From the IMG/VR virus record IMGVR_UViG_3300046694_000619: DNA of 64,000 nucleotides; one strand, given 5' to 3'. Source of the stretch: a virus. Taxonomy: Duplodnaviria > Caudoviricetes. Positions 23,029-52,618 of the stretch are shown here, one piece after another. The stretch's first letter is position 1; the number at the start of each line of letters is the position of its first letter. A program made the position numbers and the translations under genes. Below the pieces are notes generated by a model. The model was given only the letters and a program-made list of their open reading frames with translations. It searched no databases and was not told the DNA's origin.

Positions 23029-23154
23029 ATGTTCAATGATGATTACGGTGTGGATGTGAACGCTTTCGTTGCAACGCTCGACCGCCGTGAAGCGGCCCAA
23101 GCAGCGTTCGAGGATGCGGACACCGACAATAATCACGAAGACGACGACGAATAA
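23029..23154 (+). CDS. Small acidic peptide (41 aa)
   Basis: GAGGA RBS, CTATAC motif, downstream terminator at ~23180-23213. Confidence 0.5.
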   Translation: MFNDDYGVDVNAFVATLDRREAAQAAFEDADTDNNHEDDDE

Positions 23155-23222
23155 CGTCTCCAGTCGCCAAACTCTCCCAGAACCCTCCCGATTTTCGGAG
23201 GGTTCTTTTTTTTGTCCGTGCG

Positions 23223-23672
23223 TCAGACGTTGAACCGTTCTCGGCAGGCCTGGACCGCTGTCACAGCCTCATCCGGAAGGCCGGCTGGCAGCTTGGCCAC
23301 CCGTGCCGAGAACGCCGCCAGCGACCGCGGAGCACAGCCCTCTTCGAGCAGCGCCGCGAATCCTGCGCTTTCGCCATGCAGGTGCAGCTCGTCAAAGTTG
23401 CCATCGGAGTCCAGCTCGAACCACGCCAGGTCTACAAGGGTGCACTCGAGCGCGCGACATACGGCTTCCGCGTAGTCCAGCGCGCCATTGGTAACGCTGA
23501 CACCCGGGTTTTGCGGGTGGTCGGCCAGCAGACACCAGCCCAGGCCACCGCTACGAGCGATGACAGCCGTCACGCCTGGTCGCCCGCTGTGCGCGCCGTC
23601 GAGTCGCACGTTGTGCCGTATCGGCGCCGCAATGTTTTGTCGCAAAAAGTGCTGTATCGAAACTGTCGGCAT
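23223..23672 (-). CDS. Hypothetical protein
   Basis: AAGGAGG RBS; NPGVSVTNG motif. Confidence 0.65.
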   Translation of the reverse strand: MPTVSIQHFLRQNIAAPIRHNVRLDGAHSGRPGVTAVIARSGGLGWCLLADHPQNPGVSVTNGALDYAEAVCRALECTLVDLAWFELDSDGNFDELHLHGESAGFAALLEEGCAPRSLAAFSARVAKLPAGLPDEAVTAVQACRERFNV

Positions 23673-31360: not shown

Positions 31361-31990
31361 TTAGTCGCGGCGAAGCCGGTTAGGCACGATGGCCTGGTGC
31401 CTCCAGTGGTCGTCCGTCTGAACGTGGTCCTTGCGGACCCACTTGGCCATCGACTGTGCAAAATCCTCGAAGCGGAACCGGCCGGCCAGGCGCATAACAA
31501 GGCCTTCTTCCACCTCAGTGTCGAGCTCGCGCACGACCTGATGAATCACCTTCTCGTCAAAGATACCTCGCCACTTTACCGGCACCGGCTCAATATCGAG
31601 CAGCTGGAAGACTTCGATTGTGTTGTCCCAGTCAAGTGAGGTGTTCGTCTCGTCCCAGACAGAAAACCCTTCGAAGTAGCTCTTCAGGTCTGTGTACGCA
31701 ATCGAATGCAGCGCGTACAGGTTCTCGCCGCAGATGCGCCAGCCTTCCGGGATGTCATGGGCGAACTTAGCGTGCCACGCTGCCACCCAGTCGCGCGACG
31801 GATGATGGGCGCTGTCGACCGACTTGGCGTGGAAGCCATCCCGGTACAGGTTCGTGTTCTCGCCGTCGCGCTTTGACGTGATGACGACAGGCTTGCCCTC
31901 AAAGTGGCTTAGCGAGCGCAGCACCTTGTCCTGGCGTCCGATACCAGGCGAGAAGGGCATGTGAGGCGTAGTCGGGTACTTTTGTCTCAT
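31361..31990 (-). CDS. ATP-dependent RNA ligase-family protein
   Basis: KYPTTPH.PFSPG...DK, motif I KRDGEN, CGENLYA.HSI.Y, EGLV.R, AKWVR..HVQTD.HW. Confidence 0.85.
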   Translation of the reverse strand: MRQKYPTTPHMPFSPGIGRQDKVLRSLSHFEGKPVVITSKRDGENTNLYRDGFHAKSVDSAHHPSRDWVAAWHAKFAHDIPEGWRICGENLYALHSIAYTDLKSYFEGFSVWDETNTSLDWDNTIEVFQLLDIEPVPVKWRGIFDEKVIHQVVRELDTEVEEGLVMRLAGRFRFEDFAQSMAKWVRKDHVQTDDHWRHQAIVPNRLRRD

Positions 31991-32078
31991 GGCAGGGTAC
32001 TGCTAGGTTCTTTCGGTGACTTGTAGTATACTGCAAATTACGCGTACCTGCACGCGCTTTTTCGACCTTGGGGCCTTG

Positions 32079-32519
32079 ATGTTAACTTTCATCGGTGCTG
32101 TTGCTCAGCACATGTTTCGTGTCGTGACCTTCCGGCATCCGGGCACGGGGTTGCCGTCGACTCGTGGCGGTGCGCTCTACGTGCTGATGGTCATGTGGGC
32201 GTTGAGCCGCATTGGCATCGACCTGACAACGCCTGAGGCGGAAGGCGGATTTGATGCGCTCAATTCCATCGCTTACGTCCTCGCATATATTGGTCTGACA
32301 GCTGTGTTTCTCCGGCCGCCCGCAATCGCGTTGCTGATGCTGGTGAACACGTTCAGCAATTTGCTGGAAGCGGGAATTCGCCTTTGCGGCATAACCGAGC
32401 CGGGTGTAGCCATCGCGCTCTACATCTGGACAGGTATCGCGCTTCTCCTCACGCTCAACCGTATCGTATCGAGCGCCATCCGCGCCAACCAGAAAAACCG
32501 AACTCCCGAAAAGAACTGA
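32079..32519 (+). CDS. Membrane protein
   Basis: About four hydrophobic segments. Confidence 0.6.
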   Translation: MLTFIGAVAQHMFRVVTFRHPGTGLPSTRGGALYVLMVMWALSRIGIDLTTPEAEGGFDALNSIAYVLAYIGLTAVFLRPPAIALLMLVNTFSNLLEAGIRLCGITEPGVAIALYIWTGIALLLTLNRIVSSAIRANQKNRTPEKN

Positions 32520-32521
32520 CC

Positions 32522-33196
32522 ATGGACCAACAAAAACTCCTTGCTGCATTGACCGCCGCCCAAGGCGCGCTCGAACTGATTGCGGCGCGTCAACGCCCGG
32601 ATGGTACCTACAATCGCGACCGTGAGGCCTGCGGAGTGCTCGCTCGCGACACGCTGAAGACGGTGACTGCGTTACTGAATCCATCCGCGGGAGCCGAAGC
32701 AGAGTCAGGCGCAGAAGCACGGCCAGTAGGGCACTCCAGCGGAAGCTACATCGTCGTGTCCGATGGGTCCAGCCTTGGAAATCCGGGGGACTCTGGCTGG
32801 GGCGTGGTATTGCTGGAGGGCGGTGATGTCAAATTCGCCGGAGGCGGGTATATCGGCGTGCAGACCAACCAGGTTGCCGAACTGACCGCGGCTATCGAAG
32901 GCTTGTCGCGTGTACCGGAGGGCGCGCGCGTCGAACTCGTATCCGACAGTCAGTACACACTCAAAGGCCTGACCGAATGGCGCGCTGGCTGGGAGCGCAA
33001 CGGCTGGCGCACGGCATCCAAGGAGCCAGTCAAGAATCTGGAACTTTGGAAGCGGCTCTACTCGGTCGCCGACAAGCGCAAGGTCACTACGCGGTGGGTG
33101 AAGGGGCACGCAGGTGATGAGATGAACGAGCGCGCCGACGCGCTTGCGAGCAAAGCGGCCAAATCCCGTCAGCCGCTTGTACTCGAAGCTGCCTGA
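32522..33196 (+). CDS. rnhA: Ribonuclease HI with N-terminal extension
   Basis: SDGSSLGNPG..GWG, TNQVAELTAA, SDSQY, W...GW......PVKN.ELW, WVKGHAG..NERAD. Confidence 0.9.
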   Translation: MDQQKLLAALTAAQGALELIAARQRPDGTYNRDREACGVLARDTLKTVTALLNPSAGAEAESGAEARPVGHSSGSYIVVSDGSSLGNPGDSGWGVVLLEGGDVKFAGGGYIGVQTNQVAELTAAIEGLSRVPEGARVELVSDSQYTLKGLTEWRAGWERNGWRTASKEPVKNLELWKRLYSVADKRKVTTRWVKGHAGDEMNERADALASKAAKSRQPLVLEAA

Positions 33197-33372
33197 CGTC
33201 CAGGCGACGTGACCGTGACGCCGTGAAGCCGCCATCGAGGGGGCTTTTTTGTTTTCGGCGTTGATATACCATGAAAGTTGCATTATGACGTTTCTTTGAT
33301 ATACTAAGTCGGTCTCCCATCCACTGACTCACGTATCCGCGTCGGCCGCCGGCCCGCAACCAAGGAATGCTC

Positions 33373-34191
33373 ATGAAGAAAACCCTTTTCGCCATCATGG
33401 CGCTGATGGCTGCCAGCTCGGCTATGGCTGTCACTTCGAACAACCCGTTCACGCGCGACATCCCGGAGCCGGTTCCCGCGCTGCCGTCGCCGTACACCTT
33501 CGAGCTTGGCCTGACGTCGCACCACGAAACCTACCGCGAGTACGGCGAGGACGGACGGCACATCATGCAGGAAGAAGCCTGGTTCACGGGCGTAAAGGGC
33601 GGCGTCACCCGCACCATCGGCGATACCGGCGGCTCGGTTGTGTTGACGGGCGAATACGCGCTCGGCAAGTCAAACTACACTGGCTCCTACATCGGCGGCA
33701 GCTACGGCGACCTGTCGATTCACAACCTGGACCGCAGCCTGCTTGAAGTGACGGCGATGTACAAGCAGACCGCGCCGCTCTGGAATGGTCTGTCGGCCGG
33801 CCTCGGAATTGGTTATCGCCGCCTGGTCGACGACCTCGAGGGTTTCGACGGTGGCTACAAGCGTACCAACGACCGGCTCTACCTGACCGTCGCGCTCGAG
33901 CAGTCGTTCAAGCTCAAGAACTGGACCATCACTCCGGGCGTGCAGTATGACCGAATCATCATGGGTAAGGCTAAGTCCGACCTGCTCGGTGGCGTCACGG
34001 TGAACCAGAACAACGGCTACGGCGCGAAGGGTTCGATTGTCATCACGCACAAGGACCGCTTCAATACGACCGTGGAGCCGTACTTCCGCTACTGGGACGT
34101 CAAGGCGTCCAACGTCGACGCTGCAACGGGCCTGTACGAGCCGCGCAACAAGACGACGGAAATCGGTCTCAACGTGACGTTCAAGTTCTGA
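33373..34191 (+). CDS. Outer-membrane beta-barrel protein
   Basis: Signal peptide, alternating amphipathic strands, C-terminal Phe (EPRNKTTEIGLNVTFKF). Confidence 0.8.
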   Translation: MKKTLFAIMALMAASSAMAVTSNNPFTRDIPEPVPALPSPYTFELGLTSHHETYREYGEDGRHIMQEEAWFTGVKGGVTRTIGDTGGSVVLTGEYALGKSNYTGSYIGGSYGDLSIHNLDRSLLEVTAMYKQTAPLWNGLSAGLGIGYRRLVDDLEGFDGGYKRTNDRLYLTVALEQSFKLKNWTITPGVQYDRIIMGKAKSDLLGGVTVNQNNGYGAKGSIVITHKDRFNTTVEPYFRYWDVKASNVDAATGLYEPRNKTTEIGLNVTFKF

Positions 34192-34243
34192 CACCTCTTC
34201 GCTGTCTAAAAGGAGCGCCGCCCGCAAAGCGGCGCGGAAACCC

Positions 34244-34564
34244 ATGATTTCAGGCTCCCTGTTTTTCATCCTCATGCTGCTTGCTGCGGGCGCCATGCTG
34301 AAGCTGTCTGAACGATTGCTGGTGCTGTTTCTCGGCGGCGCATGCCTGCTTGTGTTGATACCAACAGGCATCTTCATTGCCGAAAGCCAGAGCTGGCGTG
34401 AGCACGTCCTGAACAACACCACTACCGTCGGCCTGGTGCTCATAACGCTTGTCGCCATTGGCTCGATAGGCGCGCTCGCCTGCGCGCTGTCGGCGGTATT
34501 GCGGGTGCTCATCGCAACCGTTCGTGCACTTCGCTCAAAGAAGGGAAGGCAACAAATTGCTTGA
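34244..34564 (+). CDS. Small membrane protein
   Basis: Three hydrophobic segments. Confidence 0.5.
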   Translation: MISGSLFFILMLLAAGAMLKLSERLLVLFLGGACLLVLIPTGIFIAESQSWREHVLNNTTTVGLVLITLVAIGSIGALACALSAVLRVLIATVRALRSKKGRQQIA

Positions 34565-34589
34565 CACAATGTGATTGTCAAGCTATACT
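34561..34589 (+). promoter_or_regulatory. Sigma70 promoter of the tmRNA gene
   Basis: TTGACA-N17-TATACT. Confidence 0.85.
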
Positions 34590-34592
34590 AGC

Positions 34593-34860
34593 ATTCATCG
34601 TTGTAATTCCTCTGGAATTGAAATTCGGCGGAAAAGGGTTCGACTCCCTTCACCTCCACCAAATGCGCATTTGTCAAGTACGTATTTGATGGGGGTGCCC
34701 AGGTTTCGACGTCGTGCGGAGATGAAGGCGGCAACGCGGGCAGGCGACTTCCCGGTGAGCTTCGGCTTGCGAACAGAGCAAAATCGTTAAATGCAAACGA
34801 TGAATCGTACCTGATGGTCGCTTGACCGTCCGGGGCCGCGCCTGCCCTGTGAAATAAATG
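34593..34860 (+). ncRNA. ssrA: Circularly permuted (two-piece) tmRNA, tag ANDESYLMVA
   Basis: Acceptor piece AAGGGTTCGACTCCCTT-CACCTCC-ACCA ends at 34661, upstream of the 5' piece GGGGGTG...TTCGAC at 34691; G3.U70 pair; resume codon GCA at 34793 and TGA at 34823-34825. Confidence 0.92.
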
Positions 34861-34864
34861 CGTG

Positions 34865-34899
34865 GAAACCCAGGCCTCGCGGTCTGGGTTTTTCTTTTT
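34865..34899 (+). terminator. tmRNA terminator
   Basis: GAAACCCAGGCC-TCGC-GGTCTGGGTTTT followed by a T-run. Confidence 0.75.
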
Positions 34900-34939
34900 G
34901 AGCTATACCATGTGTCCTAGCCCCGTTGCCCAAAAGACC

Positions 34940-36955
34940 ATGCTGTTCAAGAACAAGATTTCAATCGCGGTTGCTTCCGCGCTGTTGCTGGCCGCCGGTC
35001 ACGCTATCGCGTCCGACTATTATGTCGTTGTGCCTGTCCCGAACCATACGGCGGATTCATCGGCCATCAACGTGACACTGGGCGGGGCGTCGCTACCGGC
35101 AGGGCAGGTCGGAATGCCGTATCAAGGCTTCGACCTCAAACCGTTGCTCTCGGTCACAGGTGACGCGACCTACACGGGTTATGGCGTGCGATGGAGCATC
35201 GCTTCTGGAAGCCTGCCCGCTGGGCTCACGCTCAACAGCAACGGCACCATCAGCGGCACCCCGGCCGCGGGCGGCACGTTCTCGTTTCAGGTGCTGGCCG
35301 CCTATAAGACGAAGGCCGGCCAGCAGGCGTATCAGATTCTCGTTGCCGACATCAAGGTCTCGCTCGATGCGGCTTCGCCGCCACAAGCCGTTGTGGGCGC
35401 TGCATACAGCTATGACCTGCGGCCGCTGCTGTCGGTCACAGGCGATGGCGCATACACGGGCCAGAACGTCACGTGGTCGATGGTCTCCAGTTCGCTGCCC
35501 GCGGGCCTGTATCTCACCTCCGATGGTTTCATCGGTGGCACGCCGAGCACCTCTGGAACTGGAAGCCTTACCGCGCGCGCGACGTACAGAAATAGCAGTG
35601 GCCAACAGACTTACCAGGTGGTGTCTGTCTACAGCATCAGCGTGGTGTTGGGCTCGAGCACGCCGACCCAGGCGATTGTCGGCCAGGCGTACACGTTCGA
35701 CGCGAAGCCTTTGCTGACCGTCACAGGCGACCCCGCATACACTGGAGACGGTGTGACGTGGGGCATCGCGTCTGGCAGCCTGCCAGCAGGGCTGTCTCTG
35801 TCGGCAAACGGCGTCATCACCGGGACACCGACCGCGGCAAGTAGTGGGCCGGTCACCCTGCAGGCGACGTATCGCGGCACCAATGGTCAGCAGACGTACC
35901 AGCTGGTCTCGCTCAACATCGTCGTCAACCTGGGGACGGCCACACTGCCGCTCGCCAACGTCGGCGCAAGCTACTCGTACGACTTCAAGCCCCTTCTTGG
36001 CGTAACAGGGGACTCGAGCTATGCCGTATCGGCGGTGCAATTCCACGCAGGCGCGCTCCCTCCCGGACTCAGCCTGAACGCGACAGGCGTGCTTTCGGGC
36101 ACGCCCACCGTGACTGCGTCTGCACAGAGTTTCTCGGTCGTGGCCGACTATCGCGGGCAGGATGGCACACAGCAGTACGCCATCACCGTAAACCCGGCGT
36201 TCTTTAATTTCAGCCCGACGATTGCAGCCTCTACGGCCAACTATAACCTCTACAACGCTGCGCGAGCCGCCGGCTGGGACGGCGTGGCGCCGCTGAAGGC
36301 GACGGTGACCGTCAACGCCGGTGTCTACGTTGGCGGCTCGTCGACGGGGAGCTACGCGTTCTCGACGGGTACGGGTTTTCCGGCACAGACCAGCCTCAAT
36401 CTGATTAACAACGGTGTCATCGTCGGCAAGGGCGGCGATGGCGGCAGCTGGGGCTTCGGCGGTGGCAATGGCGGCCCGGCTATGCTGGCGCAGTACCCAA
36501 TCAAGGTAACCAACAACGGCACCATCGCGGGTGGCGGTGGGGGCGGTGGCGGCTCCAACCGTGCGACGGTCGCCAACGTGCTGGCAGGCGGCGCGGGTGG
36601 CGGAGGCGGGCAGGGCTATGGAACCTCGGCTGGAGGAGCCGCGGACCCGGCTTTTTCGGGCACGCAATACCCGCAAGGACAACCGGGCTTGACTGGCAAT
36701 ATCACCACGCCGGGACTGGGCGGTACCGGTACTCAATCCGGCATGTTCCCAAACCAGTTTCAGGCGCCTTGGTATGCAATTTCGGGCAACGGAGGCAACG
36801 GCGGACTACTCGGGCAGGCGGGTGCTGCGTCGACGGCCGGACAGTGGGTGCCTAACGTCGGTAGCCTTTCAGGCGGTGCAGCGGGCTATTCCGTCGTCGG
36901 AGCGGCCAACGTAACCTGGTCGGCGACGGGCTCCGTGCTCGGTCCACGACAGTAA
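34940..36955 (+). CDS. Secreted adhesin: 4 putative-Ig repeats + Gly-rich C-terminal domain
   Basis: Signal peptide, DYYVVVPVPN, four SGSLPAGL.L...G.I.GTP-type repeats, tip with NNG.I.G.GG.GG glycine runs. Confidence 0.85.
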   Translation: MLFKNKISIAVASALLLAAGHAIASDYYVVVPVPNHTADSSAINVTLGGASLPAGQVGMPYQGFDLKPLLSVTGDATYTGYGVRWSIASGSLPAGLTLNSNGTISGTPAAGGTFSFQVLAAYKTKAGQQAYQILVADIKVSLDAASPPQAVVGAAYSYDLRPLLSVTGDGAYTGQNVTWSMVSSSLPAGLYLTSDGFIGGTPSTSGTGSLTARATYRNSSGQQTYQVVSVYSISVVLGSSTPTQAIVGQAYTFDAKPLLTVTGDPAYTGDGVTWGIASGSLPAGLSLSANGVITGTPTAASSGPVTLQATYRGTNGQQTYQLVSLNIVVNLGTATLPLANVGASYSYDFKPLLGVTGDSSYAVSAVQFHAGALPPGLSLNATGVLSGTPTVTASAQSFSVVADYRGQDGTQQYAITVNPAFFNFSPTIAASTANYNLYNAARAAGWDGVAPLKATVTVNAGVYVGGSSTGSYAFSTGTGFPAQTSLNLINNGVIVGKGGDGGSWGFGGGNGGPAMLAQYPIKVTNNGTIAGGGGGGGGSNRATVANVLAGGAGGGGGQGYGTSAGGAADPAFSGTQYPQGQPGLTGNITTPGLGGTGTQSGMFPNQFQAPWYAISGNGGNGGLLGQAGAASTAGQWVPNVGSLSGGAAGYSVVGAANVTWSATGSVLGPRQ

Positions 36956-36976
36956 CCAACAATCGGGTTCTCTATC

Positions 36977-37249
36977 ATGATTGTCTGCGTGTGCAAGTCC
37001 GTATCTGACCGCCATATCCACGCAGCCATCCGGGATGGTGCCCAGTCGCTCGAAGAGTTGCAGTTCGAACTGGGTGTCGCGCTAGGTTGCGGCAAGTGTG
37101 AGAGCCATGTACGCGGGCTGCTGGATGAGCCCAGCCGGTGTCCCGCCGAATGCAAAGAAAAAGAGCCCTGGATTCGGATGAACCAGGGCTCTTTGAGTGT
37201 CGAGCTGCATCAGGCGCGGACACACGGTCCGTCCTGCTTTCCCTCCTGA
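36977..37249 (+). CDS. bfd: Bacterioferritin-associated ferredoxin-like (2Fe-2S) protein
   Basis: MIVCVCKSVSDR.I...GV...CGKC. Confidence 0.85.
   Translation: MIVCVCKSVSDRHIHAAIRDGAQSLEELQFELGVALGCGKCESHVRGLLDEPSRCPAECKEKEPWIRMNQGSLSVELHQARTHGPSCFPS
37153..37194 (-). terminator. Terminator of the convergent gene, embedded in the bfd tail
   Basis: AAAGAGCCCTGG...CCAGGGCTCTTT with a T-run on the minus strand. Confidence 0.6.
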
Positions 37250-38278
37250 TTAGTCGGTTTCGCCATAGCGCGCCTTACGAGCTGCGCAAATCTCGTCTGC
37301 GGCGCCGGCAACGAAATCGGCATATCGCCTGCCAGTCACGTTGTCGTAGTCTTGCCCCGCGTACATGACAGGTTCGTACGCCACCCGCAGCATCCCCAGC
37401 CCGCGCGCCGCATACAGAAGCGACAATGGCGCCTCGCAAACCTCGATAAAGTGCGACACACACCGTCCGCCGTCGACCACTGCATCCACCGCCGCATCGA
37501 AGCGCCGGCGGAATAGCCACGTGATGGCATGCGTCTCGTCGCTCGACATTCGCATGCGCAAATGTTCGCGGAACGAGTCCTTACGAACAAAGCGCTTCAT
37601 GTCGTCTTCAACATCCGCCAGCTCCTCGGCGAGCTCAGCAAATGCCCGCGTGAAGTACACCTCGCGTGCAAAGGAACCATCCTCCGGGGTGGATTCAGCC
37701 AAGACAACCAGGCGGTTGAAGCTGACTTCGTGCATGACTGCAAGCTGCAACGGCCGCAACACCTGGCTGCCATTCGCGACAAACACGCGGTCTTCATTGA
37801 TTGCTTCCTCCAGCTCGTCCCATAGCGCGGTGGCTTCCTCAAAATCGAGGTGCTCGGGCGCGATGCTGTCAAGAAAATGCGTCTGTGCAGACAGCCGGGC
37901 GTGAAGCTTGGGAGCATGCTCCGCGGTGAGTGCCTTGAAGTCGAAAGCCTTATCGCGTTCGTCGGCCAGAGAGGTCGCCGCGCGATGAAACATCCCATTG
38001 TAGAACTCAGCCAGAATGGCTCTGTTCTCGGGCGTCTCGTCGAACGTGAACGTGCTGCAGTCCGAATACACTCCGCTGAGCAGCGCAGTCATCGCTCGCC
38101 AGTGACAGTCAGGGCTGCTCGCGGCGTTTCGAATTCCATACAGCTCTTGCTCCGTGTCGCCGAAAACCAGCTTGGCCGGCCGGAATGTCGAACGCTGGAG
38201 GATGACTGCGACACGGCACCGCTCGTTTTCGGCGATGACTTGACCGCTAACAAAACATTTGACGTTAAAAGAACCCAT
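37250..38278 (-). CDS. Phage-type hypothetical protein (342 aa)
   Basis: MGSFNVKCFVSGQVI; C-terminal P.MYAGQDYDN; GGAGG RBS. Confidence 0.75.
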   Translation of the reverse strand: MGSFNVKCFVSGQVIAENERCRVAVILQRSTFRPAKLVFGDTEQELYGIRNAASSPDCHWRAMTALLSGVYSDCSTFTFDETPENRAILAEFYNGMFHRAATSLADERDKAFDFKALTAEHAPKLHARLSAQTHFLDSIAPEHLDFEEATALWDELEEAINEDRVFVANGSQVLRPLQLAVMHEVSFNRLVVLAESTPEDGSFAREVYFTRAFAELAEELADVEDDMKRFVRKDSFREHLRMRMSSDETHAITWLFRRRFDAAVDAVVDGGRCVSHFIEVCEAPLSLLYAARGLGMLRVAYEPVMYAGQDYDNVTGRRYADFVAGAADEICAARKARYGETD

Positions 38279-38412
38279 GATTTACCTCCGAAAAGTGGTT
38301 TGAGCCTGTCCACGTATAGCGCCGGACATAGGCAGGCCCGCAAGCGTGTGCGGCGGTCAGGGCCGAAAGAAACAGCCTGGACTCGAGGGACCAGGCTGCT
38401 GAGGGTGAGGCT

Positions 38413-38679
38413 TTACTGCGCGGCGGGGACGTCGTAGGACAGCGGGACGCGCTGTCCCATGTTCCAGCACGAAAGCACCAGATGGTCCGGCTGCGGCGGC
38501 TTCAACAGACTGCGATGACGCACGATGTACCAGCCCGAATGCGTATGGCATTCGCCAGTCAGCATATTGCGGTGCTGGCGGGTCCAGGCGTCGAGCTCGG
38601 TCGAGCCAAAGACGAACTTCGGGGTTGCGGGGTCGTTCGCGAGTTCCAGAATGCGTGTGGGGGTCATGACCTTATCCAT
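38413..38679 (-). CDS. Hypothetical protein
   Basis: AAGGA RBS; CTATAC motif 35 nt upstream. Confidence 0.6.
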   Translation of the reverse strand: MDKVMTPTRILELANDPATPKFVFGSTELDAWTRQHRNMLTGECHTHSGWYIVRHRSLLKPPQPDHLVLSCWNMGQRVPLSYDVPAAQ

Positions 38680-38823
38680 GGTTGATTGTCCTTTTCGGGT
38701 GTGCCACGTGAAGGTATAGGCTCCCAAAAAGTAGCGAAAGTCGTCCGCGTCATTCGCTTAATTACCGTTTTGTGGTATACTATGTATTCTTCCCCAGTAA
38801 CAGTGCTACCACACAGGAGTATC

Positions 38824-39156
38824 ATGGCACGCGTAACCGCATACGAAGCAAGCGACGGCACCCTTCTCCGTGACCGCAAAGAGTATCTGCGCCACGAAAG
38901 CAATCTGCTCGTCGCAAAAAAGCTGCAACCCATCATCGAAGCACAGGCCGGCGACACGTCGAAGGCCGGTGAAATTCTGAACTTCATCGTCAAGGGCATC
39001 GGCCTGAACACGCTGCGCGACCTGTTCGCCATTCAGTTCAAGCCGGGCGCAGAAGACGGCGACGGCGAAAACGCAGGCGGTGCGCCGGCCGCAGAAGCCG
39101 GTGCGCCGGCCGAAGCTGGTGCCGCGGCAGCCGCTGACGCAGGCGGCGACATCTAA
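38824..39156 (+). CDS. Hypothetical protein with Ala/Gly-rich acidic tail
   Basis: AGGAG RBS; AYEASDGTL motif; first gene of the smpB unit. Confidence 0.7.
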   Translation: MARVTAYEASDGTLLRDRKEYLRHESNLLVAKKLQPIIEAQAGDTSKAGEILNFIVKGIGLNTLRDLFAIQFKPGAEDGDGENAGGAPAAEAGAPAEAGAAAAADAGGDI

Positions 39157-39178
39157 ACGGACAACACGAGGAAAAACC

Positions 39179-39637
39179 ATGACTACCGTGCTCGAAAACC
39201 GCCAGGCTCGCCATCTCTATCACATCGAAGAGAGCCTGGAAGCTGGTCTGGTGCTCGAAGGCTGGGAAGTCAAGGCTATCCTCGCCGGGCGCGCCAACTT
39301 CAACGGAGGCGGCGCGTTTATTCGATTTGCGGGCGGCGAGGCATGGCTCGAATCCATGACCATCACGCCGCTCCCGACGTCGAACCACGGTCTGCTGGTA
39401 GAGACCAACCCGACTCGCGCGCGCAAGCTGCTGTTGCGCCGCGCCGAGTTGACCAAGCTCTCGCGCAAGGTCGCCGAGCGCGGCTATACCGTGGTTCCGC
39501 TCGAGGTTTCGCGCGACCGCAAGCTCAAACTCCGCATTGGCCTGGCCAAAGGCAAGAACGTTGCGGACAAGCGCCAGACGTTGCGCGACCGTGACATGAC
39601 TCGCGAAGTTCAGCGGGAGCTGGCTGGCCGTGGCTGA
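39179..39637 (+). CDS. smpB: SsrA-binding protein SmpB
   Basis: NRQARHLYHIEESLEAGLVLEGWEVKAI, R.RKLLL, GYTVVPL, IGLAKGK...DKR. Confidence 0.95.
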   Translation: MTTVLENRQARHLYHIEESLEAGLVLEGWEVKAILAGRANFNGGGAFIRFAGGEAWLESMTITPLPTSNHGLLVETNPTRARKLLLRRAELTKLSRKVAERGYTVVPLEVSRDRKLKLRIGLAKGKNVADKRQTLRDRDMTREVQRELAGRG

Positions 39638-40052
39638 CATGTACGTCCCGCGCCGGCGCTCGCCCGGCCGCACGGCGCTTAACTTCATCAAATCGGCGCT
39701 GACTGTCGTGGTAACGCTCGCGACTATCCCGATGGTCATTGCCGTCGGCATGACGCCGAAATGCTCCGAGCAGGCGACACGCTATGTCGTCGTGCCGTCG
39801 GACGTCCACGGCAAGCTCGAGTACTGCATCGCCGAGTCGCATCTGGGCCGGTACACGCCGGACGGTTCGATATGGCGAAATGTCGTGCAGCCCGACGCCA
39901 TTTGCTCTCAGGCAAAACCGGAGTTGGTGCAGCGGGCCGCGAAGATGACCCAGACGTCCGCGCAGGCCAAGGATGCATGCGATACCCGCGCGCTTCATGC
40001 GACTTACGACACGTTCGTCGCACCTGTCGTTCGGTGGTTTCATCGTGCATAA
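39630..40052 (+). CDS. Membrane-anchored Cys-containing protein
   Basis: One TM then four Cys; overlaps the smpB stop. Confidence 0.55.
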   Translation: MADMYVPRRRSPGRTALNFIKSALTVVVTLATIPMVIAVGMTPKCSEQATRYVVVPSDVHGKLEYCIAESHLGRYTPDGSIWRNVVQPDAICSQAKPELVQRAAKMTQTSAQAKDACDTRALHATYDTFVAPVVRWFHRA

Positions 40053-40162
40053 TTCAATGCTATACTAGCGATATGAACTGACATCTATCTCCTTCTGGAC
40101 TTACACGAACTTAAAGCCTCTGGGCCATCCAGGGGTTCGTGCGCCCATTCGAAGGAGATTCC

Positions 40163-40444
40163 ATGCGCTACATCCGTCTGTCCAACGCAGCCGTCGCCAT
40201 CAGCGACGAGCAACCCATCAGCACCCCCAAGGCTCCGCGCGAGCCGTTACTCCCGACCGAGACGTACTGGGCCCGCAATGTGATGCGGGGAAAACTCGGC
40301 ACGTACATCGCCATCCGCGTGAGCGGCGAGCAGATGTGGGTCGGAGTTCGAGACACCAACGCCCTGGCCTGGGTCAAGGCCGACAAGGCGCTCTCGACGA
40401 GCGAAGCGCAAGCCTGGTTCAAGCGGGCAGGGTTCTCCCGCTGA
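40163..40444 (+). CDS. Hypothetical protein
   Basis: AAGGAG RBS; terminator at ~40447-40478. Confidence 0.7.
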   Translation: MRYIRLSNAAVAISDEQPISTPKAPREPLLPTETYWARNVMRGKLGTYIAIRVSGEQMWVGVRDTNALAWVKADKALSTSEAQAWFKRAGFSR

Positions 40445-40531
40445 CGCAAAAGCCGCCTCCCTGAAGGCGGCTTTTTTGTTGCTTATAACGTTATTAAACG
40501 ATATAATACACTATCTCTTTCGCACGTTATC

Positions 40532-41155
40532 ATGGCTAAAACCACTTTCGAACAGGACCTGATTTCCTTGGTCACGTCGCTCATTCATTTGCGCTTCATC
40601 GGCGAAGAGCTTCATAAAAAGCCGTTTGCGATTCCGCGAATGGAAGCTGCGCTGCACAATTCGATTAATGCCTTTCAAGACCTGAGCGTGTCGTTCGAGC
40701 GCGTCGAAGAAACGATGCAGCAGGATGCGCAGCCCTACATTGCGCAATGGCTTGCCGCGCGCCGCCTGCAAATTGGCGGAGGAGCGGCATTTGAAGGCAG
40801 GAACGGCTCGAATATCGCCCGGATTCGTGGACGTCTGTCGGTCGCACAGCTTCATCCGCGGATGCATGCAGGCAAGCGGTACGTCGAGCTGATTCTGGAT
40901 GACTTGAGCTTTTCCGTCGACACAAACTCTCAGTACGAGCTATTCGAGACATTCACTGCGCAACAGTTGTCTGCGGTACTGGGCAATACAACTGTGCGCC
41001 GCCTCCCTGTCACAAAAAGCGAGACCCGATTCCAATTTCGCACTGCTCCGGCGGACGCCGATATTGACCGCTATGTGGCACGCGTTCTTCTACCCATCAA
41101 GCAGGCGGACATTAAAGCGCTGGCGCTCGGTATCTGGCATTTCCGTCAGGTCTGA
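40532..41155 (+). CDS. Hypothetical protein (paralogue A)
   Basis: Similar to the next ORF: L.S...S.I.L...KKP...AQP....WLA...L..GG..F.G. Confidence 0.65.
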   Translation: MAKTTFEQDLISLVTSLIHLRFIGEELHKKPFAIPRMEAALHNSINAFQDLSVSFERVEETMQQDAQPYIAQWLAARRLQIGGGAAFEGRNGSNIARIRGRLSVAQLHPRMHAGKRYVELILDDLSFSVDTNSQYELFETFTAQQLSAVLGNTTVRRLPVTKSETRFQFRTAPADADIDRYVARVLLPIKQADIKALALGIWHFRQV

Positions 41156-44470: not shown

Positions 44471-47400
44471 TCAGTGAAAATCGCGGCTGTGAGTCGACAG
44501 GTCGCCTAGCAGGTGGGACATGTCGACGAGGCGCTGGGCAATCAGGTGCCGCACGCCACCTTCACTCTGCCAGGTCCCATACACCGCGAGAAGCGAAGCG
44601 CCTAGCGCCTCCTTGCGATGTCGTTCGAGCACCGACTGCCACACAATCACGTTCACGTTGCCCGTCTCGTCCTCGAGCGTCACGAACATCACGCCGTTTG
44701 CCGTGCCCGGCCGCTGCCGCCCGACAACCAGTCCGCACCCGCGCGCGAGCCGGTTGTTCGGATACCTCGCAAGCGTCGACGCGGGCATCAGCCTATGCTC
44801 GCGCAACGCAGGTCGGAGCAGGGCAAGCGGATGCCGGCCAAGCGTGAGTCCCGTCGACTGGTAGTCGCTCACGATGTCGTCGACTTCCGACGGCGCGCCA
44901 AGCTCAGGTGTCGCGTCATCAACGCCTGCACCGGCCAGGATGTCCTTGTCGGGGATGGCCGCTGCAGATTGCCACAAGGCTTCGCGCCGGTTCCCCGCGA
45001 GGGAGGCCAGCGCGTTGGCCGCGGCCAACACCTGAAGGTCGTGGCGGTCGAGTTGCGCGCGCCGCGCCAGGTCGCTTACGGAAGAGAACTGCCTGACTGC
45101 GCGAGCATTCTCAATGCGCTCCGACGCGCCGTCGCGCATGCCGCGCAACAGCGACAGCCCGAGCCGAACCACTGGCCTTGGCTGCCCATCCGGATGCTCA
45201 AGCACGGAGTCCCAGGCGCTTATCGTGACGTCGACCGGCGCCACCCTCACGCCGTGACGCTTTGCATCCTGCACGAGTTGCGAGGGCGAATAGAACCCCA
45301 TCGGTTGGGAGTTCAGCATCGCAGCAAGGAACGCCGCAGGCTCGTGGCGTTTGAGCCAGCTGCTCGCATAGACAAGTAACGCAAAGCTCGCGGCATGGCT
45401 TTCGGGAAAGCCGTACTCTCCGAAACCCTTGATTTGCTCGAAGATGCCGTCGGCGAAGCTGCGCTCATAGCCGCGCGCGAGCATCCCGTTCACTATGCGG
45501 TCGTAGTATTTTTCAAGTCCGCCTTTACGTTTCCACGCGGCCATCGCGCGCCGGAGCTGGTCCGCTTCACCCGGCGAGAAGCCCGCGGCAAGGATGGCGA
45601 CCTGCATTACCTGCTCCTGGAAAATCGGCACGCCCAGCGTTCGGCCCAGCGCGGTCTCCAGGTCCGCACTCGGATAGCTTACCGGCTCAATACCCTGGCG
45701 CCGGCGAAGATATGGATGCACCGCGCCGCCCTGAATCGGACCGGGTCGCACGAGCGCGACCTCAATCACAAGGTCGTAGAAGGTCTTCGGCTTCAGCCGC
45801 GGGAGCATCGACATCTGCGCGCGCGACTCGATTTGAAAAACGCCCACGGTATCTGCGCGGGAAATCATGTCGTAGGTCGCCTTGTCCTCGACCGGAATAT
45901 CCTGCATCTCGAAGCGCTCGCCGCGCTCCTCGGACACGATGTCGAGTGTGCGCCGGATGGCTGACAGCATTCCGAGCGCAAGGATGTCGACCTTCAGCAG
46001 CCCGAGCGCCTCGAGGTCGTCCTTGTCCCATTGAATCGCGCTGCGCCCCGTCATCGCTGCATTTTCAATGGGGACCAGGCGCGTGAGCTTGCCGCGGCTG
46101 ATAACGAATCCACCCGAGTGCTGCGAGAGATGACGCGGGAAATTCAGTATCTGGCCGGCGAGCGACGCCCACGCCGCAATCAACGGATTCTCTGGGTCCA
46201 GGCCCGATTCCGCAAAACGGTTGAGCAGGTCGTGACTGCTATCGAACCATTGATGATTTTTGGCGACACGGTCAACGATTTGCGGGTCGATGCCGAGCGC
46301 CTTCCCGGTTTCGCGCAGCGCACCTCGCGGTCGATATGTGTGCACGGCCGCCGCGATGGCGGCGCGATTGCGGCCGTACTTTTCATAGATGTACTGGATG
46401 ACGATTTCACGTTTTTGATGCTCGAAATCGACGTCTATGTCGGGCGGCTCGTTTCGCTCAGGGCTCAGGAATCGCTCGAACAACATGGAGCTGCGCGAGG
46501 GGTCAACTTCGGTCACGCCCAGGCAATAACAGACCGCAGAATTGGCGGCGGAGCCGCGTCCCTGGCAAAGGATGTGCTCGCTGCGAGCGAACCGAACGAT
46601 GTCGTAAACCGTCAGGAAATACGGCTCGAAATTCAGTTGCCGGATTATCTTCAGCTCGTGCTCAATCTGCTCCTGCACTGCATGCGGGATACCGTTTGGA
46701 AAGCGGCGATGCGCGCCGATGTACGTCTCCTGACGCAGATAGTCTTCGTGTGTGATGCCGGGCGGCACAAGTTCGTCGGGATACTCGTAGCGAAGCTCAT
46801 CCAGTGAGAACGTACAGCGCTCGAGGATGCTGAGCGTCTCTGACAGCGTGTGCTCCGGATACAGGTTGGCCAGCCGCAGACGGGACCGCAGATGCTGCTC
46901 GGCGTTCGGCGCGAGGTCATAGCCACACTCGGCAATAGGCCTGCCGACGCGTATGGCCGTCATCGTGTCCTGCAACGGCTTCCTCGAGCGCACATGCATG
47001 ACGACCTTTCCCGTGGCCACCACGGGAACCCGATACCGGTCGGCAATGTGTTCGACGATGCCGCGATGAATGTCATCCATCGCGCGCTGGTGCAATGTGA
47101 GTCCGACGTAAGCACGCGTGGGAAACGTCTCGTTCATCCACTCGAGCTGCGCCGCGAGCGCGGCCTCCTTTGCCGGGAAGTCGGGCACGAGGATGGCGAG
47201 GCAGTCGGGCATGCCGCGCAGGTGCGCATAGTCAGGCTCCGGCCGTGCGATGTCCTGTGGCGTGAGCAGGTAGCTGCCTTTCTCCGCACGCATGCGACCG
47301 AGCGTGATGAACTCCGACAGATTGCCGTAGCCTTCACGATTCTGCGCAAGCAGAATCAGACCGAAAGCGGGGCGTTTGTCTGCATGTACCAGCTCGAAGT

Positions 47401-47620
47401 ACGCGCCGATGATGAGTGGCAGCTTCTCTTCTTTGGCCTGAACATGTGCGCGCACCACGCCGGCGAGCGAACACTCGTCGGTGATGGCGAGGCCCGCATA
47501 TCCGAGTTGCGCCGCGCGCGCGACCAGCTCCTCCCCGCGTGACGCGCCGTGAAGGAACGTGAAATTCGAGAACGCGAACAGCTCCGCGTATTCGGGCAGG
47601 ACGGAGAACGGCGTATCCAT
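44471..47620 (-). CDS. dnaE2: Error-prone DNA polymerase DnaE2
   Basis: YAELFAFSNFTFL.GAS, GRGSAANS, PPDIDVDFEH, FPRHLSQHSGG, YGFPESHA, C-terminal SRDFH. Confidence 0.97.
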   Translation of the reverse strand: MDTPFSVLPEYAELFAFSNFTFLHGASRGEELVARAAQLGYAGLAITDECSLAGVVRAHVQAKEEKLPLIIGAYFELVHADKRPAFGLILLAQNREGYGNLSEFITLGRMRAEKGSYLLTPQDIARPEPDYAHLRGMPDCLAILVPDFPAKEAALAAQLEWMNETFPTRAYVGLTLHQRAMDDIHRGIVEHIADRYRVPVVATGKVVMHVRSRKPLQDTMTAIRVGRPIAECGYDLAPNAEQHLRSRLRLANLYPEHTLSETLSILERCTFSLDELRYEYPDELVPPGITHEDYLRQETYIGAHRRFPNGIPHAVQEQIEHELKIIRQLNFEPYFLTVYDIVRFARSEHILCQGRGSAANSAVCYCLGVTEVDPSRSSMLFERFLSPERNEPPDIDVDFEHQKREIVIQYIYEKYGRNRAAIAAAVHTYRPRGALRETGKALGIDPQIVDRVAKNHQWFDSSHDLLNRFAESGLDPENPLIAAWASLAGQILNFPRHLSQHSGGFVISRGKLTRLVPIENAAMTGRSAIQWDKDDLEALGLLKVDILALGMLSAIRRTLDIVSEERGERFEMQDIPVEDKATYDMISRADTVGVFQIESRAQMSMLPRLKPKTFYDLVIEVALVRPGPIQGGAVHPYLRRRQGIEPVSYPSADLETALGRTLGVPIFQEQVMQVAILAAGFSPGEADQLRRAMAAWKRKGGLEKYYDRIVNGMLARGYERSFADGIFEQIKGFGEYGFPESHAASFALLVYASSWLKRHEPAAFLAAMLNSQPMGFYSPSQLVQDAKRHGVRVAPVDVTISAWDSVLEHPDGQPRPVVRLGLSLLRGMRDGASERIENARAVRQFSSVSDLARRAQLDRHDLQVLAAANALASLAGNRREALWQSAAAIPDKDILAGAGVDDATPELGAPSEVDDIVSDYQSTGLTLGRHPLALLRPALREHRLMPASTLARYPNNRLARGCGLVVGRQRPGTANGVMFVTLEDETGNVNVIVWQSVLERHRKEALGASLLAVYGTWQSEGGVRHLIAQRLVDMSHLLGDLSTHSRDFH

Positions 47621-47635
47621 GGCGACTGCCTGACC

Positions 47636-49099
47636 TTACCCGAACATGCCGTGCAGGAACCAGCGCACTTCTTCAGACGTCGCGCTTGGCCGCTCCCGGT
47701 AAATCCAGTAGCAGCTCTTGTCCGTTGCTTCTGCGACGTAATAGTCGCGTGCCGTCTGCCCGCCATCGAACCAGCCGCCTTCAATGCGCTCAGCGGTCGA
47801 GACGAGCTTCAACGGCGACCCGTAAAAAGGCCGATGCTGTTTGACCATCAGACGGATGGGTGTTTCGAGCAGCCAGGACGGACGCGGCAATTCGGAGGGT
47901 GGCGGCGCGAGCTTTACTGACTCCTGCACGGAGACCCAGCGGTTAGCGTTCTCCGGTCGATGGTCCGAGGTCGGAGCAGGGCGCAAGACGTTCTCGGCGC
48001 CGAGCCGCGCGACGAGTAGCTCGAGCAGCCGGTTGTGGTCTTCGCTTGAACCACCCGGGTCTGGAAAGAGGTCGTCTGAAGGCGGCTCCGCCGCTTGCAC
48101 TTTCGTCGCGCTCAACCGCACGGCAATCACAGCGGCGTCCAGCTCGATACGGCCCAGCCGTTCCTTGAGCAACCGCACCAGATGCTCTTCGTGCCATGTT
48201 GGCTCAGCAAGCGCGATTTCGACGGCGGTCGGGTCAATTGCGTCCCGGCCTCGCTCGTGCTCGAGCAGCACCGTCGCATGCGTGAGTGCGAGCTGCTGCG
48301 CGCTTAGCCACCCGCAAAGCTGGACCACGAGGCGGCGCGCCGAGAAGAGTATCGCTTCTGCGTGTTCGACCCGGTCGGGAAGCTCAACGCGCGCGCTGAA
48401 GGTCGGCGGCAATTCCAGCCACTCGTACACCTCGGGCGAAAGCCCATAGGCTCTATCCAGCGAATCCAGCAGGTCCACGCCGCACCTTTTCTTCAAACCC
48501 GCACGCGGCAGCCGGCGGATGTCATTGAGCACCTGGCACCCGAGTCCGGTGAACCAGTCGGAAAACCTGCGCACCTCAGGCACGACAGGATAGGGAAGTT
48601 GGTCCAGCACGCGCTCGAGGGAGGACATCTTGAGCACGCGCCGCCGGCCGCGCTTGGCCAGCAACCACGAACCCTGGCCGGTTGGCGCCACGCTCATACA
48701 CATCGTCACGCCTACGGCGGCGACAACCTGACGAATCAGATGGCAGATACGCAGCACGCCGCCGAAGAGTCGCAGGCTTGCCGAGACGTCGACGATGACC
48801 GTGTCCTCTTCCCGAACGCAGACCATCGGCGAGAACCGCATCAACGCTACGGCGACCTCACACAGCATGTTTTGCTCTCGGCCGGCATCCCGTTCATATG
48901 CCAGCGCGGCTGGCGCAAGTGTAAGGACCCCTCCGCGCTTCATGCCCATCACCACACCCGCGTCTTTGGCTACCGCGTCCGCGATGACAACCTTGTCCCT
49001 GTCCAGTACGACGCAGCCGTTTTCCGTCCTAGGCGACCACCTCGGACGGAACACCTCCAGCGAGAGCCGGGGCAGGTGTACGGCGACGAATACGGCCAT
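47636..49099 (-). CDS. imuB: ImuB (Y-family polymerase-like)
   Basis: VDVSASLRLFGG, RLPRAGL, L.ARLG...V, RPSWLL, ERIEGGWFD...RDYY, W.LHG.F. Confidence 0.95.
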   Translation of the reverse strand: MAVFVAVHLPRLSLEVFRPRWSPRTENGCVVLDRDKVVIADAVAKDAGVVMGMKRGGVLTLAPAALAYERDAGREQNMLCEVAVALMRFSPMVCVREEDTVIVDVSASLRLFGGVLRICHLIRQVVAAVGVTMCMSVAPTGQGSWLLAKRGRRRVLKMSSLERVLDQLPYPVVPEVRRFSDWFTGLGCQVLNDIRRLPRAGLKKRCGVDLLDSLDRAYGLSPEVYEWLELPPTFSARVELPDRVEHAEAILFSARRLVVQLCGWLSAQQLALTHATVLLEHERGRDAIDPTAVEIALAEPTWHEEHLVRLLKERLGRIELDAAVIAVRLSATKVQAAEPPSDDLFPDPGGSSEDHNRLLELLVARLGAENVLRPAPTSDHRPENANRWVSVQESVKLAPPPSELPRPSWLLETPIRLMVKQHRPFYGSPLKLVSTAERIEGGWFDGGQTARDYYVAEATDKSCYWIYRERPSATSEEVRWFLHGMFG

Positions 49100-49736
49100 A
49101 AGGGCTTAGCAGAGTGGGTGAAGGGTGCAGGGTGACGGAAACCGGCTCGATTCGGTCCGGGCCTCGCCGTTTGATGACATCGACGACGACACCGCCCGCG
49201 GAAGACCGCAGCCCGAGTCTCAGTGCAGCAGGAGAAGCGTCTGCGGCATTGGCCAGCGGCCTGACGAGGAAGAAGAGTGTCTCGGTCGCCTGCGCAGCCA
49301 GGTGTAACCGTCGCAGGGCATCTGTGCGGATGTGCTGCTGCCAAAGCAAGAGCGCGCCGCAACTTCGCGCGCGCAGGATTTGCTCCGCGCTCCATAGAGC
49401 GTCCGCGGTTGTCTTCGTCCGCACCCACATGAGCTTCTCGAGCGGCAGGCCCAGAAACGAGAAAGCCAGCGCGTTGGGTACATGCGGGGGCTGCAACAGC
49501 GCGATAGGCCGCTTGCTGACGTCAACCAGCGCCGGCTGCAACAGCCGGAGTTCGCCGACGCCGGGTTGCTGAACCAGCAACTCGACCAGCGCCGCGACCG
49601 GCCAGCCGCCGCCGGGCAACTCGCTCGAGAGTGCCGCGTATCCGGTGTCGACAGTCTTTCCCTGCGGACGCGCGAGTTGCGCCCCGCGCCAAAGCGCTGG
49701 GTGAATCGACTCGACTTCCTTCGGCAGGGCTGACAT
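49029..49736 (-). CDS. imuA: ImuA
   Basis: HPALWRG.QL, TGYAAL..ELPGGGWP, GVGELRLLQPAL, LRRLHLAA, ASPAALRL, KRRG. Confidence 0.93.
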   Translation of the reverse strand: MSALPKEVESIHPALWRGAQLARPQGKTVDTGYAALSSELPGGGWPVAALVELLVQQPGVGELRLLQPALVDVSKRPIALLQPPHVPNALAFSFLGLPLEKLMWVRTKTTADALWSAEQILRARSCGALLLWQQHIRTDALRRLHLAAQATETLFFLVRPLANAADASPAALRLGLRSSAGGVVVDVIKRRGPDRIEPVSVTLHPSPTLLSPYGRIRRRTPAPALAGGVPSEVVA

Positions 49737-49748
49737 GGTGGCTGAGTA

Positions 49749-49764
49749 CTGTATGCATGTACAG
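49749..49764. promoter_or_regulatory. LexA (SOS) box
   Basis: CTGT-ATGCATGT-ACAG, 13 nt upstream of imuA. Confidence 0.9.
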
Positions 49765-50021
49765 TGATTGTACTCCACAACGACACACCGCCTGGAGACC
49801 AGGGTTTACGCGGACTGCCCAGAGGGGTGCCGCGACCGCTTCGCCGGCCCAACTGAAATGACTGACCATACGGGTATGAAGTCTGCTGGGTGCGGACGAC
49901 GTGCAATCGCGCCGCCACCAGGCGCGCCGCCCGTGGTGGTAAGCTCGAAAATCCAGCAAGGGTTCCGGCCAGCTGCCTGGAGCCCCGCATAAGGCCCCCG
50001 CCGGCCTGCGAGGAGAAGCAT

Positions 50022-52617: not shown

Positions 52618-52618
52618 C

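Follow-up and report, generated by a model that had tools for sequence, protein, structure and literature searches.

The window analysed here, a stretch of 64,000 nucleotides filed as the Caudoviricetes record IMGVR_UViG_3300046694_000619 of IMG/VR, carries a gene for a circularly permuted transfer-messenger RNA (tmRNA) and, on the same strand 4.29 kb downstream, a gene for the trans-translation protein SmpB. The only RNA gene that ARAGORN calls in the window lies at 34569-34916 (+); it is a permuted tmRNA whose tag reads ANDESYLMVA and is followed by a stop. Two Rfam models recognise it above their curated gathering scores, the threshold that a covariance-model match has to reach for membership of a family: RF01850 (beta_tmRNA) gives 116.5 bits over 34547-34892 (+), where 84 is required, and RF04321 (tmRNA_permuted) gives 106.5 bits, where 47 is required. 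An earlier note, made from the letters of this DNA alone, had proposed a permuted two-piece tmRNA with its CCA end at 34661, GGGGGTG at 34691 and a 29-nt spacer between them; ARAGORN and both Rfam models bear out the proposal and the positions agree with the raw sequence.

The 3' half of the tRNA-like part, ending in CCA, comes first in this gene and is followed by the GGGG half (34691-34697) and then by the tag frame (34793-34825), which is the order expected of a circular permutation. The gene is framed by a near-consensus promoter and an intrinsic terminator. The promoter (34561-34589, +), found by a consensus scan with 11 of 12 positions matched, consists of TTGACA, 17 nt and TATACT; the -10 element with its preceding C reads CTATACT (34583-34589), and TATACT is unchanged in all seven aligned relatives. 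A C at -13 makes CTATACT resemble the -10 form that RpoS prefers, which gives a hint, as yet unproven, of expression under stress. The terminator, located by sequence scan at 34864-34899 (+), is a 13-pair stem followed by a T run. Between these signals lies first an acceptor piece of about 66 nt (34596-34661, +), delimited from ARAGORN, Rfam and the raw sequence, with a 5' end inferred from the promoter. Along it lie the 3' strand of P2 (the long helix connecting the tRNA-like part with the remainder of the RNA), a local hairpin AAUUCC/GGAAUU, the T arm and the 3' acceptor strand CACCUCC, and then the discriminator A, with CCA encoded at 34659-34661. An intervening segment of 29 nt (34662-34690, +) would be removed on maturation; its stem is paired in 9-10 of 10 relatives and the hairpin takes in the CA of the CCA, with CAAAUGCG (34660-34667) pairing with CGUAUUUG (34681-34688). 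The coding piece (34691-34893, +), placed by Rfam alignments and covariation counts, comprises GGGGGUG, the D-loop analogue GGUUUCGAC, the 5' strand of P2, a hairpin S1, a UUCG hairpin, the tag frame and a 3' region. Its GGGGGTG (34691-34697) pairs with CACCTCC (34651-34657) and so places G3.U70 in a 7-bp acceptor stem. The tag frame (34793-34825, +), as read by ARAGORN, opens at the alanine resume codon GCA at 34793, encodes ANDESYLMVA and closes with TGA at 34823-34825.

The structure was tested on ten sequences, the tmRNA of the window and nine further members of the same subfamily, by counting pairs column by column; the helices were counted by hand, since the long-range fold that RNAalifold proposed for the 10 plasmid tmRNAs was implausible. 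The acceptor stem is paired in all ten sequences, two of its positions covary and its G.U is invariant, so the G3.U70 alanine identity reported in the earlier note is present and conserved. The T stem covaries in the same counts. The fold-back of the spacer, which had also been suggested, is a covarying hairpin, its four inner pairs occurring as 3-4 pair types and being paired in 9-10 of the ten. One part of P2, CGUUGU/GGCAACG, is invariant among the plasmid tmRNAs and shows compensatory differences from the chromosomal subfamily described below; another, UUCGGCG/CGUCGUG, covaries, and with it stands the CGGCG/CGTCG pairing that had been drawn between the two pieces. The local hairpin AAUUCC/GGAAUU covaries too and has a conserved CCUCUGG loop region. 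Hairpin S1, formed by CGGG (34737-34740) and CCCG (34751-34754), is paired in 10 of 10 sequences through compensatory changes from G-C to A-U in three of them and from C-G to G-C in one.

Two helices of the earlier model fared less well. TTCATC/GATGAA is paired in just 4-9 of the ten sequences, shows zero covariation and cannot nest with the invariant P2 helix CGUUGU/GGCAACG, and we reject it. The 9-bp pairing GGGCAGGCG/CGCCTGCCC is conserved in part: its GGG portion competes with hairpin S1, and its remainder fits a pseudoknot-like contact in which the S1 loop, CAGGCG, can pair with CGCCUG downstream of the stop codon. Relatives retain such a contact in either of two registers, GCGAC/GUCGC or CAGGC/GCCUG, although it is better than that of shuffled loops in only five of the ten sequences.

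A close relative from a Joint Genome Institute (JGI) metagenome, locus L337, offers a finer comparison. Its SmpB is 99% identical to that of the window and its tag is the same; 127 nt of the coding piece (34720-34846 of the window) are 100% identical between the two, in locus DNA that is otherwise 81-84% identical. The tRNA-like parts differ by a compensatory A-U to U-A change in the T stem and a G.U to U.G change in P2. The compensatory changes and the invariance of the 127-nt stretch speak for function, and a working RNA would be expected to show just this pattern of differences.

The tag frame is open in all 12 of the tmRNAs called by ARAGORN, that of the window among them. The tags of ten relatives (ANDEVFAVAA, ANDEVFAQAA, ANDSRYLAVA, ANDSQYLAAA, ANESNFRLAA, ANDEQFTELMAA, ANDSQFAVAA, ANDSEFRMAA, ANDNSFQMAA and, in L337, ANDESYLMVA) retain an AN(D/E) start, an aromatic residue and an end made of a hydrophobic residue and A. 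In the window the tag starts from an alanine resume codon; its last two residues are VA, those of most relatives AA. The VA ending was considered as a trait of the whole clade and rejected, being found in only three (the window, L337 and L084) of the 13 tmRNA-bearing sequences, which are the window and 12 related loci.

The smpB gene (39179-39637, +) encodes a full-length protein of 152 amino acids that includes the C-terminal tail (GKNVADKR...). It scores 148.6 bits with PF01668 (cut-off 27), 154.1 with NF003843 (130) and 140.7 with TIGR00086 (119.1), so that the smpB which the earlier note had placed 4.3 kb from the tmRNA is real, complete and above the equivalog cut-offs. The SmpB proteins of relatives are 149-166 amino acids long and begin MTT(V/I)LENRQ, and because of these lengths and N-termini we take the start to be the ATG at 39179 and not the GTG at 39080 that opens the longer open reading frame (ORF; 39080-39637). 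Aligned with the SmpB structures of Aquifex (1p6v) and E. coli (7acj), the protein matches over its whole length, and its basic tail with the GK..DKR motif, GKNVADKRQTLRDRDMTREVQRELAGRG, lines up with theirs. This C-terminal tail is required for tagging.

The association of the two genes recurs. Among 13 loci examined, the window included, 12 have a permuted tmRNA lying from 36 nt to 4.3 kb upstream of an smpB of the same clade and on the same strand. The linkage appears regardless of whether a locus was entered through its SmpB (L001, L082-L084, L086, L087, L337 and L338) or through the tmRNA motif (L191, L200 and L223). The linked loci include contigs of 0.57-1.46 Mb from Burkholderia ubonensis, B. 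multivorans and Paraburkholderia, and megaplasmids of about 800 kb from Variovorax. In L001 and L087 the two genes lie close together, which is probably the ancestral arrangement; in the window and in the Burkholderia-type loci L082, L337 and L338 an adhesin-like gene and small ORFs stand between tmRNA and smpB. In a large protein collection the SmpB clade numbers more than 120 cluster representatives with 55-99% identity to the SmpB of the window; B. ubonensis, B. multivorans, Paraburkholderia and Variovorax are among the named sources. Of the contigs that carry a clade SmpB, the longest are repeatedly of 572-699 kb (single contigs of Burkholderia, Paraburkholderia and metagenomes), and others measure 810-968 kb.

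In five of the relatives (L082, L084, L086, L087 and L338) the tmRNA spacer is enlarged by an insert of some 135 nt, conserved and structured, which the spacer stem encloses (L082:6290-6445). Within it a hairpin resembling a T arm, GCGGUUCAACUCCGC, is found together with GUGG-AUAAGA-CCAC, a hairpin that covaries, and two invariant stretches, GACAGAGACUUCAAC and UUGAGAGUAGCGAACUAA. A search of Rfam with this insert found no matching family; it may be a second RNA that is freed when the tmRNA precursor is processed.

A clade SmpB was found in none of 401 Pseudomonadota genomes sampled, 398 of which had an SmpB match, the best of them 50% identical, and in none of 401 genomes of the GTDB family Burkholderiaceae, which was chosen for sampling through an SmpB identity of 79-82% to Ralstonia; together the two samples amount to 802 species genomes. 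A pattern scan of GTDB with SmpB returned only distant SmpBs, of at most 49% identity. The earlier note had held that Burkholderiaceae normally have a one-piece ssrA, and this is what we find: 144 of 151 family genomes are without a beta_tmRNA above the cut-off, and all five of the other family genomes tested have a one-piece tmRNA, with tags ANDDTFALAA or ANDESYALAA. Seven of the 151 do have a beta_tmRNA. Four of these seven are without a one-piece tmRNA and have a single, unlinked SmpB and a two-piece tmRNA on a large contig; these four use the two-piece form natively. Their smpB is distant from the tmRNA (by about 545 kb in genome G419), is 48-51% identical to that of the window and clusters with the Ralstonia type. 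Two-piece tmRNAs are 63% identical among plasmids, 79% identical among chromosomes and 51% identical between these groups.

The proteins tell the same story of separation. In a maximum-likelihood tree of SmpB, 22 plasmid-clade sequences are monophyletic (Shimodaira-Hasegawa-like approximate likelihood ratio test, SH-aLRT, 99; stem 0.80), and their stem lies outside a group of 28 sequences (SH-aLRT 99) that holds all the sampled chromosomal SmpBs of beta- and gammaproteobacteria, the native two-piece users included. The tree rests on 148 columns and a sample biased to the best matches, so the exact sister relation is uncertain. The comparison of SmpB phylogeny with the host copy, which had been put forward as a check, thus yields a plasmid lineage separate from the sampled chromosomal SmpBs of beta- and gammaproteobacteria, and recent copying of a host smpB gene is excluded.

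The tRNA-like core of the window's tmRNA (GGUUUCGAC, GGGUUCGAnUCCC, CCUCCACCA and G3.U70) is near-identical to that of host-type one-piece tmRNAs, and the first six residues of its tag match theirs. Since the core is shared, the element's tmRNA should function across systems with the host alanyl-tRNA synthetase (AlaRS) and EF-Tu and probably with host SmpB, and cross-use with host AlaRS and SmpB seems likely. The "independent" pair of the earlier note, if the word is taken to mean orthogonal, is not supported.

One genome of the family, G541 (7.2 Mb; contigs C139, at 22967-23326, and C160), was seen to have two forms of tmRNA and one SmpB. Its one-piece tmRNA scores 224.6 bits and has the tag ANDERYALAA; its two-piece tmRNA scores 281 bits with RF01850, has the tag ANDEKFALAA and lies between genes for a RecD2-like helicase and an RHS-repeat protein.

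What sort of replicon carries the pair has to be judged from its relatives and its gene content. The window is 60% GC and most of its genes have no recognised function. Those that are recognised include PurA-like, TerD, SLOG/DUF4326 domain, ADP-ribosylglycohydrolase, ImuB, DnaE2, Ku, LigD, RNA ligase, RNase HI and He_PIG/GP38 adhesin-like genes. A megablast search of positions 33000-41000 against plasmids and phages gave zero matches. The best named matches to SmpB are on four Variovorax plasmids of about 800 kb (62-66% identity), and among PLSDB records the same four alone match the tmRNA (72-73%). On the indirect evidence of the plasmid records of relatives, the sizes of their contigs and the absence of the clade from sampled genomes, the tmRNA and smpB very probably sit on an accessory giant replicon. 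The mobile replicon of the earlier note accordingly looks accessory, its closest named relatives being the Variovorax megaplasmids and Burkholderia/Paraburkholderia contigs of about 0.6 Mb.

The Variovorax plasmids (pPBL-H6-1, pSRS16-1, pPBL-E5-1 and pWDL1-1) have been described as transferable-looking megaplasmids of about 800 kb that carry repB-parAB, tra genes and a complete tRNA array (Ozturk et al. 2020, PMC7313664); tmRNA, SmpB and ssrA are all unmentioned in that paper. They contain the same two genes, a permuted beta-type tmRNA (tag ANESNFRLAA, 109.7 bits) 57 nt upstream of a clade smpB, with none of the 4.3 kb of other genes that separate the two in the window. The Variovorax SmpB belongs to another subclade and has an N-terminal extension (166 amino acids), and the plasmids share zero DNA-level similarity with the window beyond the tmRNA.

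A parallel is found in Pseudomonas, where the tRNA-rich plasmid pMPPla107 (about 1 Mb, NZ_CP031226.1) carries on one strand a tmRNA gene and, immediately after it, an smpB of its own (L312:10337-11266). This tmRNA is unlike that of the window in being of the one-piece form (RF00023, 181.9 bits; tag ANNDNFDAPVALAA). The SmpB of pMPPla107 nests, on a long branch, among gammaproteobacterial SmpBs, and for that reason we consider its ssrA-smpB pair to have been acquired independently. The pair is unmentioned in the paper on this plasmid family and in a review of megaplasmids (PMC6482414, PMC8628078).

The closest chromosomal counterpart is the two-piece tmRNA of betaproteobacteria (RF01850), reportedly the subject of Sharkady and Williams in 2004. 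The RNA of the window shares with it the permuted order, the short hairpin spacer, G3.U70, the T arm, the GGUUUCGAC core and a tag of the type ANDxx(F/Y)xxAA, and several plasmid members also have its AACAGAA-type 3' motif. It differs from the native form in its overall sequence (51% identity), in a P2 sequence of its own and in having an extra UUCG hairpin and the CCUCUGG-loop hairpin. The plasmid type is accompanied by an smpB of its own, a linkage that native copies lack, and in Burkholderia and Paraburkholderia assemblies it is found on an accessory replicon in a family that mostly uses the one-piece form. Three bacterial clades with permuted tmRNA have been recognised, and a database now holds 11,946 permuted sequences (PMC11915505).

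We consider it probable, with good confidence, that the window carries a functional, element-borne trans-translation module on a giant, megaplasmid-like accessory replicon of a Burkholderiaceae host. A strong promoter of sigma-70/sigma-S type would drive a precursor of about 300 nt, RNase P would cleave 5' of G34691, and 3' trimming would end at the encoded CCA (34661) with loss of the 29-nt hairpin. The 66-nt acceptor piece and the coding piece of about 200 nt would then be held together by the 7-bp acceptor stem and P2. Host AlaRS would charge this tmRNA via G3.U70, the element's SmpB (or the host's) would bind the tRNA-like domain, the complex would enter stalled ribosomes and translation would resume at GCA 34793 with the addition of (A)ANDESYLMVA. 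The steps that follow transcription are those of the canonical two-piece tmRNA pathway, which Keiler et al. are said to have set out in 2000. The tmRNA and smpB may be seen as part of a translation and RNA-repair gene set belonging to the plasmid family; most likely they supply extra ribosome-rescue capacity that is independent of the host, purpose being the weak point of this account.

Several observations weigh against this interpretation. A search of PLSDB found zero complete annotated plasmids of the Burkholderia-type subfamily, one locus of the clade (L085) has no tmRNA within 10 kb of its smpB, and there are phage-like genes in the window, among them one with a tail-fibre-like GP38 domain and the RNA ligase. 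The VA end of the tag in place of AA may weaken the degradation step; that VA affects recognition by ClpXP comes from studies of the E. coli ssrA tag.

The mechanism itself is known trans-translation, and that mobile elements can bring tmRNA and SmpB with them has, as a general idea, been published before. Huge phages carry tmRNA and SmpB, and "large putative plasmids" carry suites of translation genes (Al-Shayeb et al. 2020, PMC7162821); a second or even third ssrA has been noted in some genomes, "sometimes on a plasmid", and as of 2014 one plasmid, pOAD2, was known to have smpB (Hudson et al. 2014, PMC4131195). These reports share with ours the idea that large mobile elements carry ribosome-rescue genes, but they are one-line mentions that delimit no lineage, whereas our loci make up a defined SmpB clade and tmRNA subfamily whose linkage is conserved across genera. 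In the literature that we found, the plasmid-specific clade and subfamily, their linkage across genera and the Pseudomonas parallel are undescribed.

The earlier note had seen in the pair a possible protection against host toxins, and a counter-defence role, in which the pair, the RNA ligase, RNase H and a tRNA array keep translation going when toxins cleave tRNA, mRNA or host tmRNA, is possible but in our judgement unlikely. The genes on which it draws lie just upstream of the tmRNA and keep that position in five relatives. They comprise an RNA ligase (31361-31990, -; phrog_24030, 232.6 bits), an RNase HI-like protein extended at its N-terminus by about 120 amino acids (32384-33196, +; RNase H profile matches) and, as a further conserved upstream neighbour, a protein of 274 amino acids without a known family (33367-34191, +) for which a search of PLSDB gave zero matches. 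Homologues of this 31361-34191 block stand upstream of the tmRNA in L082, L083, L086, L087 and L191, and the block may be an RNA-repair neighbourhood. Moreover, the tmRNA differs from the one-piece form of the host outside the tRNA-like core, and a sequence-specific nuclease could miss it. However, host tmRNAs have almost the same tRNA-like core and tag start, the pair has no demonstrated link to a nuclease, toxin or immunity gene, and a general self-sufficiency of giant plasmids explains the gene content equally well (PMC6482414, PMC8628078).

A bolder proposal, which we advance tentatively and think decidedly unlikely, is that at least two unrelated families of giant plasmids, that of Burkholderiales with a two-piece tmRNA and that of the Pseudomonas plasmid pMPPla107 with a one-piece tmRNA, have each acquired and long kept a private ssrA-smpB pair: in the lineage of the window the LMVA tag end (compared with ALAA) would partly uncouple rescue from degradation by ClpXP, or rescue would persist when the host tmRNA is attacked. 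Were this so, the private pairs would be a specialised rescue pathway that serves the plasmid and not a simple spare.

That the element is a giant (jumbo) phage or a phage-plasmid, with the pair serving infection as has been proposed for huge phages, seems improbable. Huge phages do carry tmRNAs and SmpB (PMC7162821), the SmpB of the window matches the PHROG family phrog_6791, and the window has the GP38/tail-fibre-like domain, the RNA ligase, RNase H and a PurA-like gene. Yet a scan of IMG/VR with the invariant tmRNA motif of the family gave 79 matches of which none was a tmRNA (all were due to chance), GenBank phages are without a near match (an uncatalogued phage would escape both searches), no capsid or terminase gene was found among the window proteins scanned, and the Variovorax relatives were published as plasmids with repB-parAB and tra genes.

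That the pair is a relic in decay, or acts as a decoy by titrating ribosomes or the SmpB of the host instead of rescuing, we regard as very unlikely. The tag that ends in VA and not AA could be read in this way, and the tmRNA of mycobacteriophage DS6A, which is reduced to the tRNA-like domain, has been discussed as an inhibitor (PMC4131195). In the window, all the core features of a tmRNA are intact and covarying, the tag frame is open in every one of the 12 ARAGORN-called tmRNAs, SmpB is above the equivalog cut-offs with its tail retained and the 127-nt stretch is invariant between diverged relatives. Also very unlikely, finally, is a chromosomal window whose tmRNA and smpB are the organism's only, native two-piece system: the seven beta_tmRNA genomes among 151, with the RNA on large contigs and the sole tmRNA in the four tested, give it a precedent, but native two-piece tmRNAs are a different subfamily (51% identity), native smpB is unlinked, 48-51% identical to the window's and of the Ralstonia-type cluster, clade SmpB is in none of the 802 species genomes sampled and the surrounding genes, at 60% GC, are mostly unassigned or mobile-element-like.

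Trans-translation is usually regarded as a single-copy, chromosomal core function. The analysis delineates a deep-branching SmpB clade, with upwards of 120 sequence clusters, and a tmRNA subfamily to match; the two are carried jointly by giant plasmids across Burkholderia, Paraburkholderia and Variovorax. This makes testable the question of why very large mobile elements hold "informational" genes, be it for a lower cost of carriage, independence of the host or counter-defence. Culturable carriers exist in the linuron-degrading Variovorax strains and in the transferable pMPPla107, and a two-piece tmRNA inside hosts that have a one-piece tmRNA of their own is a natural setting for the study of cross-compatibility.

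The small ORFs that flank smpB were considered as further partners of the pair; they have zero family matches and show weak or no conservation, and we do not count them as such. The ORF directly upstream of smpB (38824-39156, +; 110 amino acids) gave zero matches in a Pfam search and belongs to no known family; ORFs of 110-135 amino acids occupy the same position in L082, L086, L337 and L338. It probably begins the smpB operon, for which a promoter-like site, TGGTATACT at 38773-38781, is a candidate promoter. An ORF of 140 amino acids (39630-40052, +), whose frame overlaps the stop codon of smpB, falls in no known family; it contains a hydrophobic segment and is weakly conserved, being 36% identical to its counterpart in L082 and 29% identical to that in L086. 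Its membership of the set is doubtful.

Other genes of the window are of a more general character. Three large proteins with He_PIG Ig-like repeats are encoded at 34862-36955, 59430-61169 and 61197-63197. The first of them, which has a C-terminus resembling the GP38 tail-fibre adhesin, is the one that separates the tmRNA from smpB, and its length varies among relatives (697, 581, 580 and 483 amino acids). A DNA-damage tolerance and repair set adjoins the locus at 44471-54544 and consists of DnaE2 (1049 amino acids, -), an ImuB-like protein (487 amino acids, -), Ku, a MerR/TPR protein and LigD.

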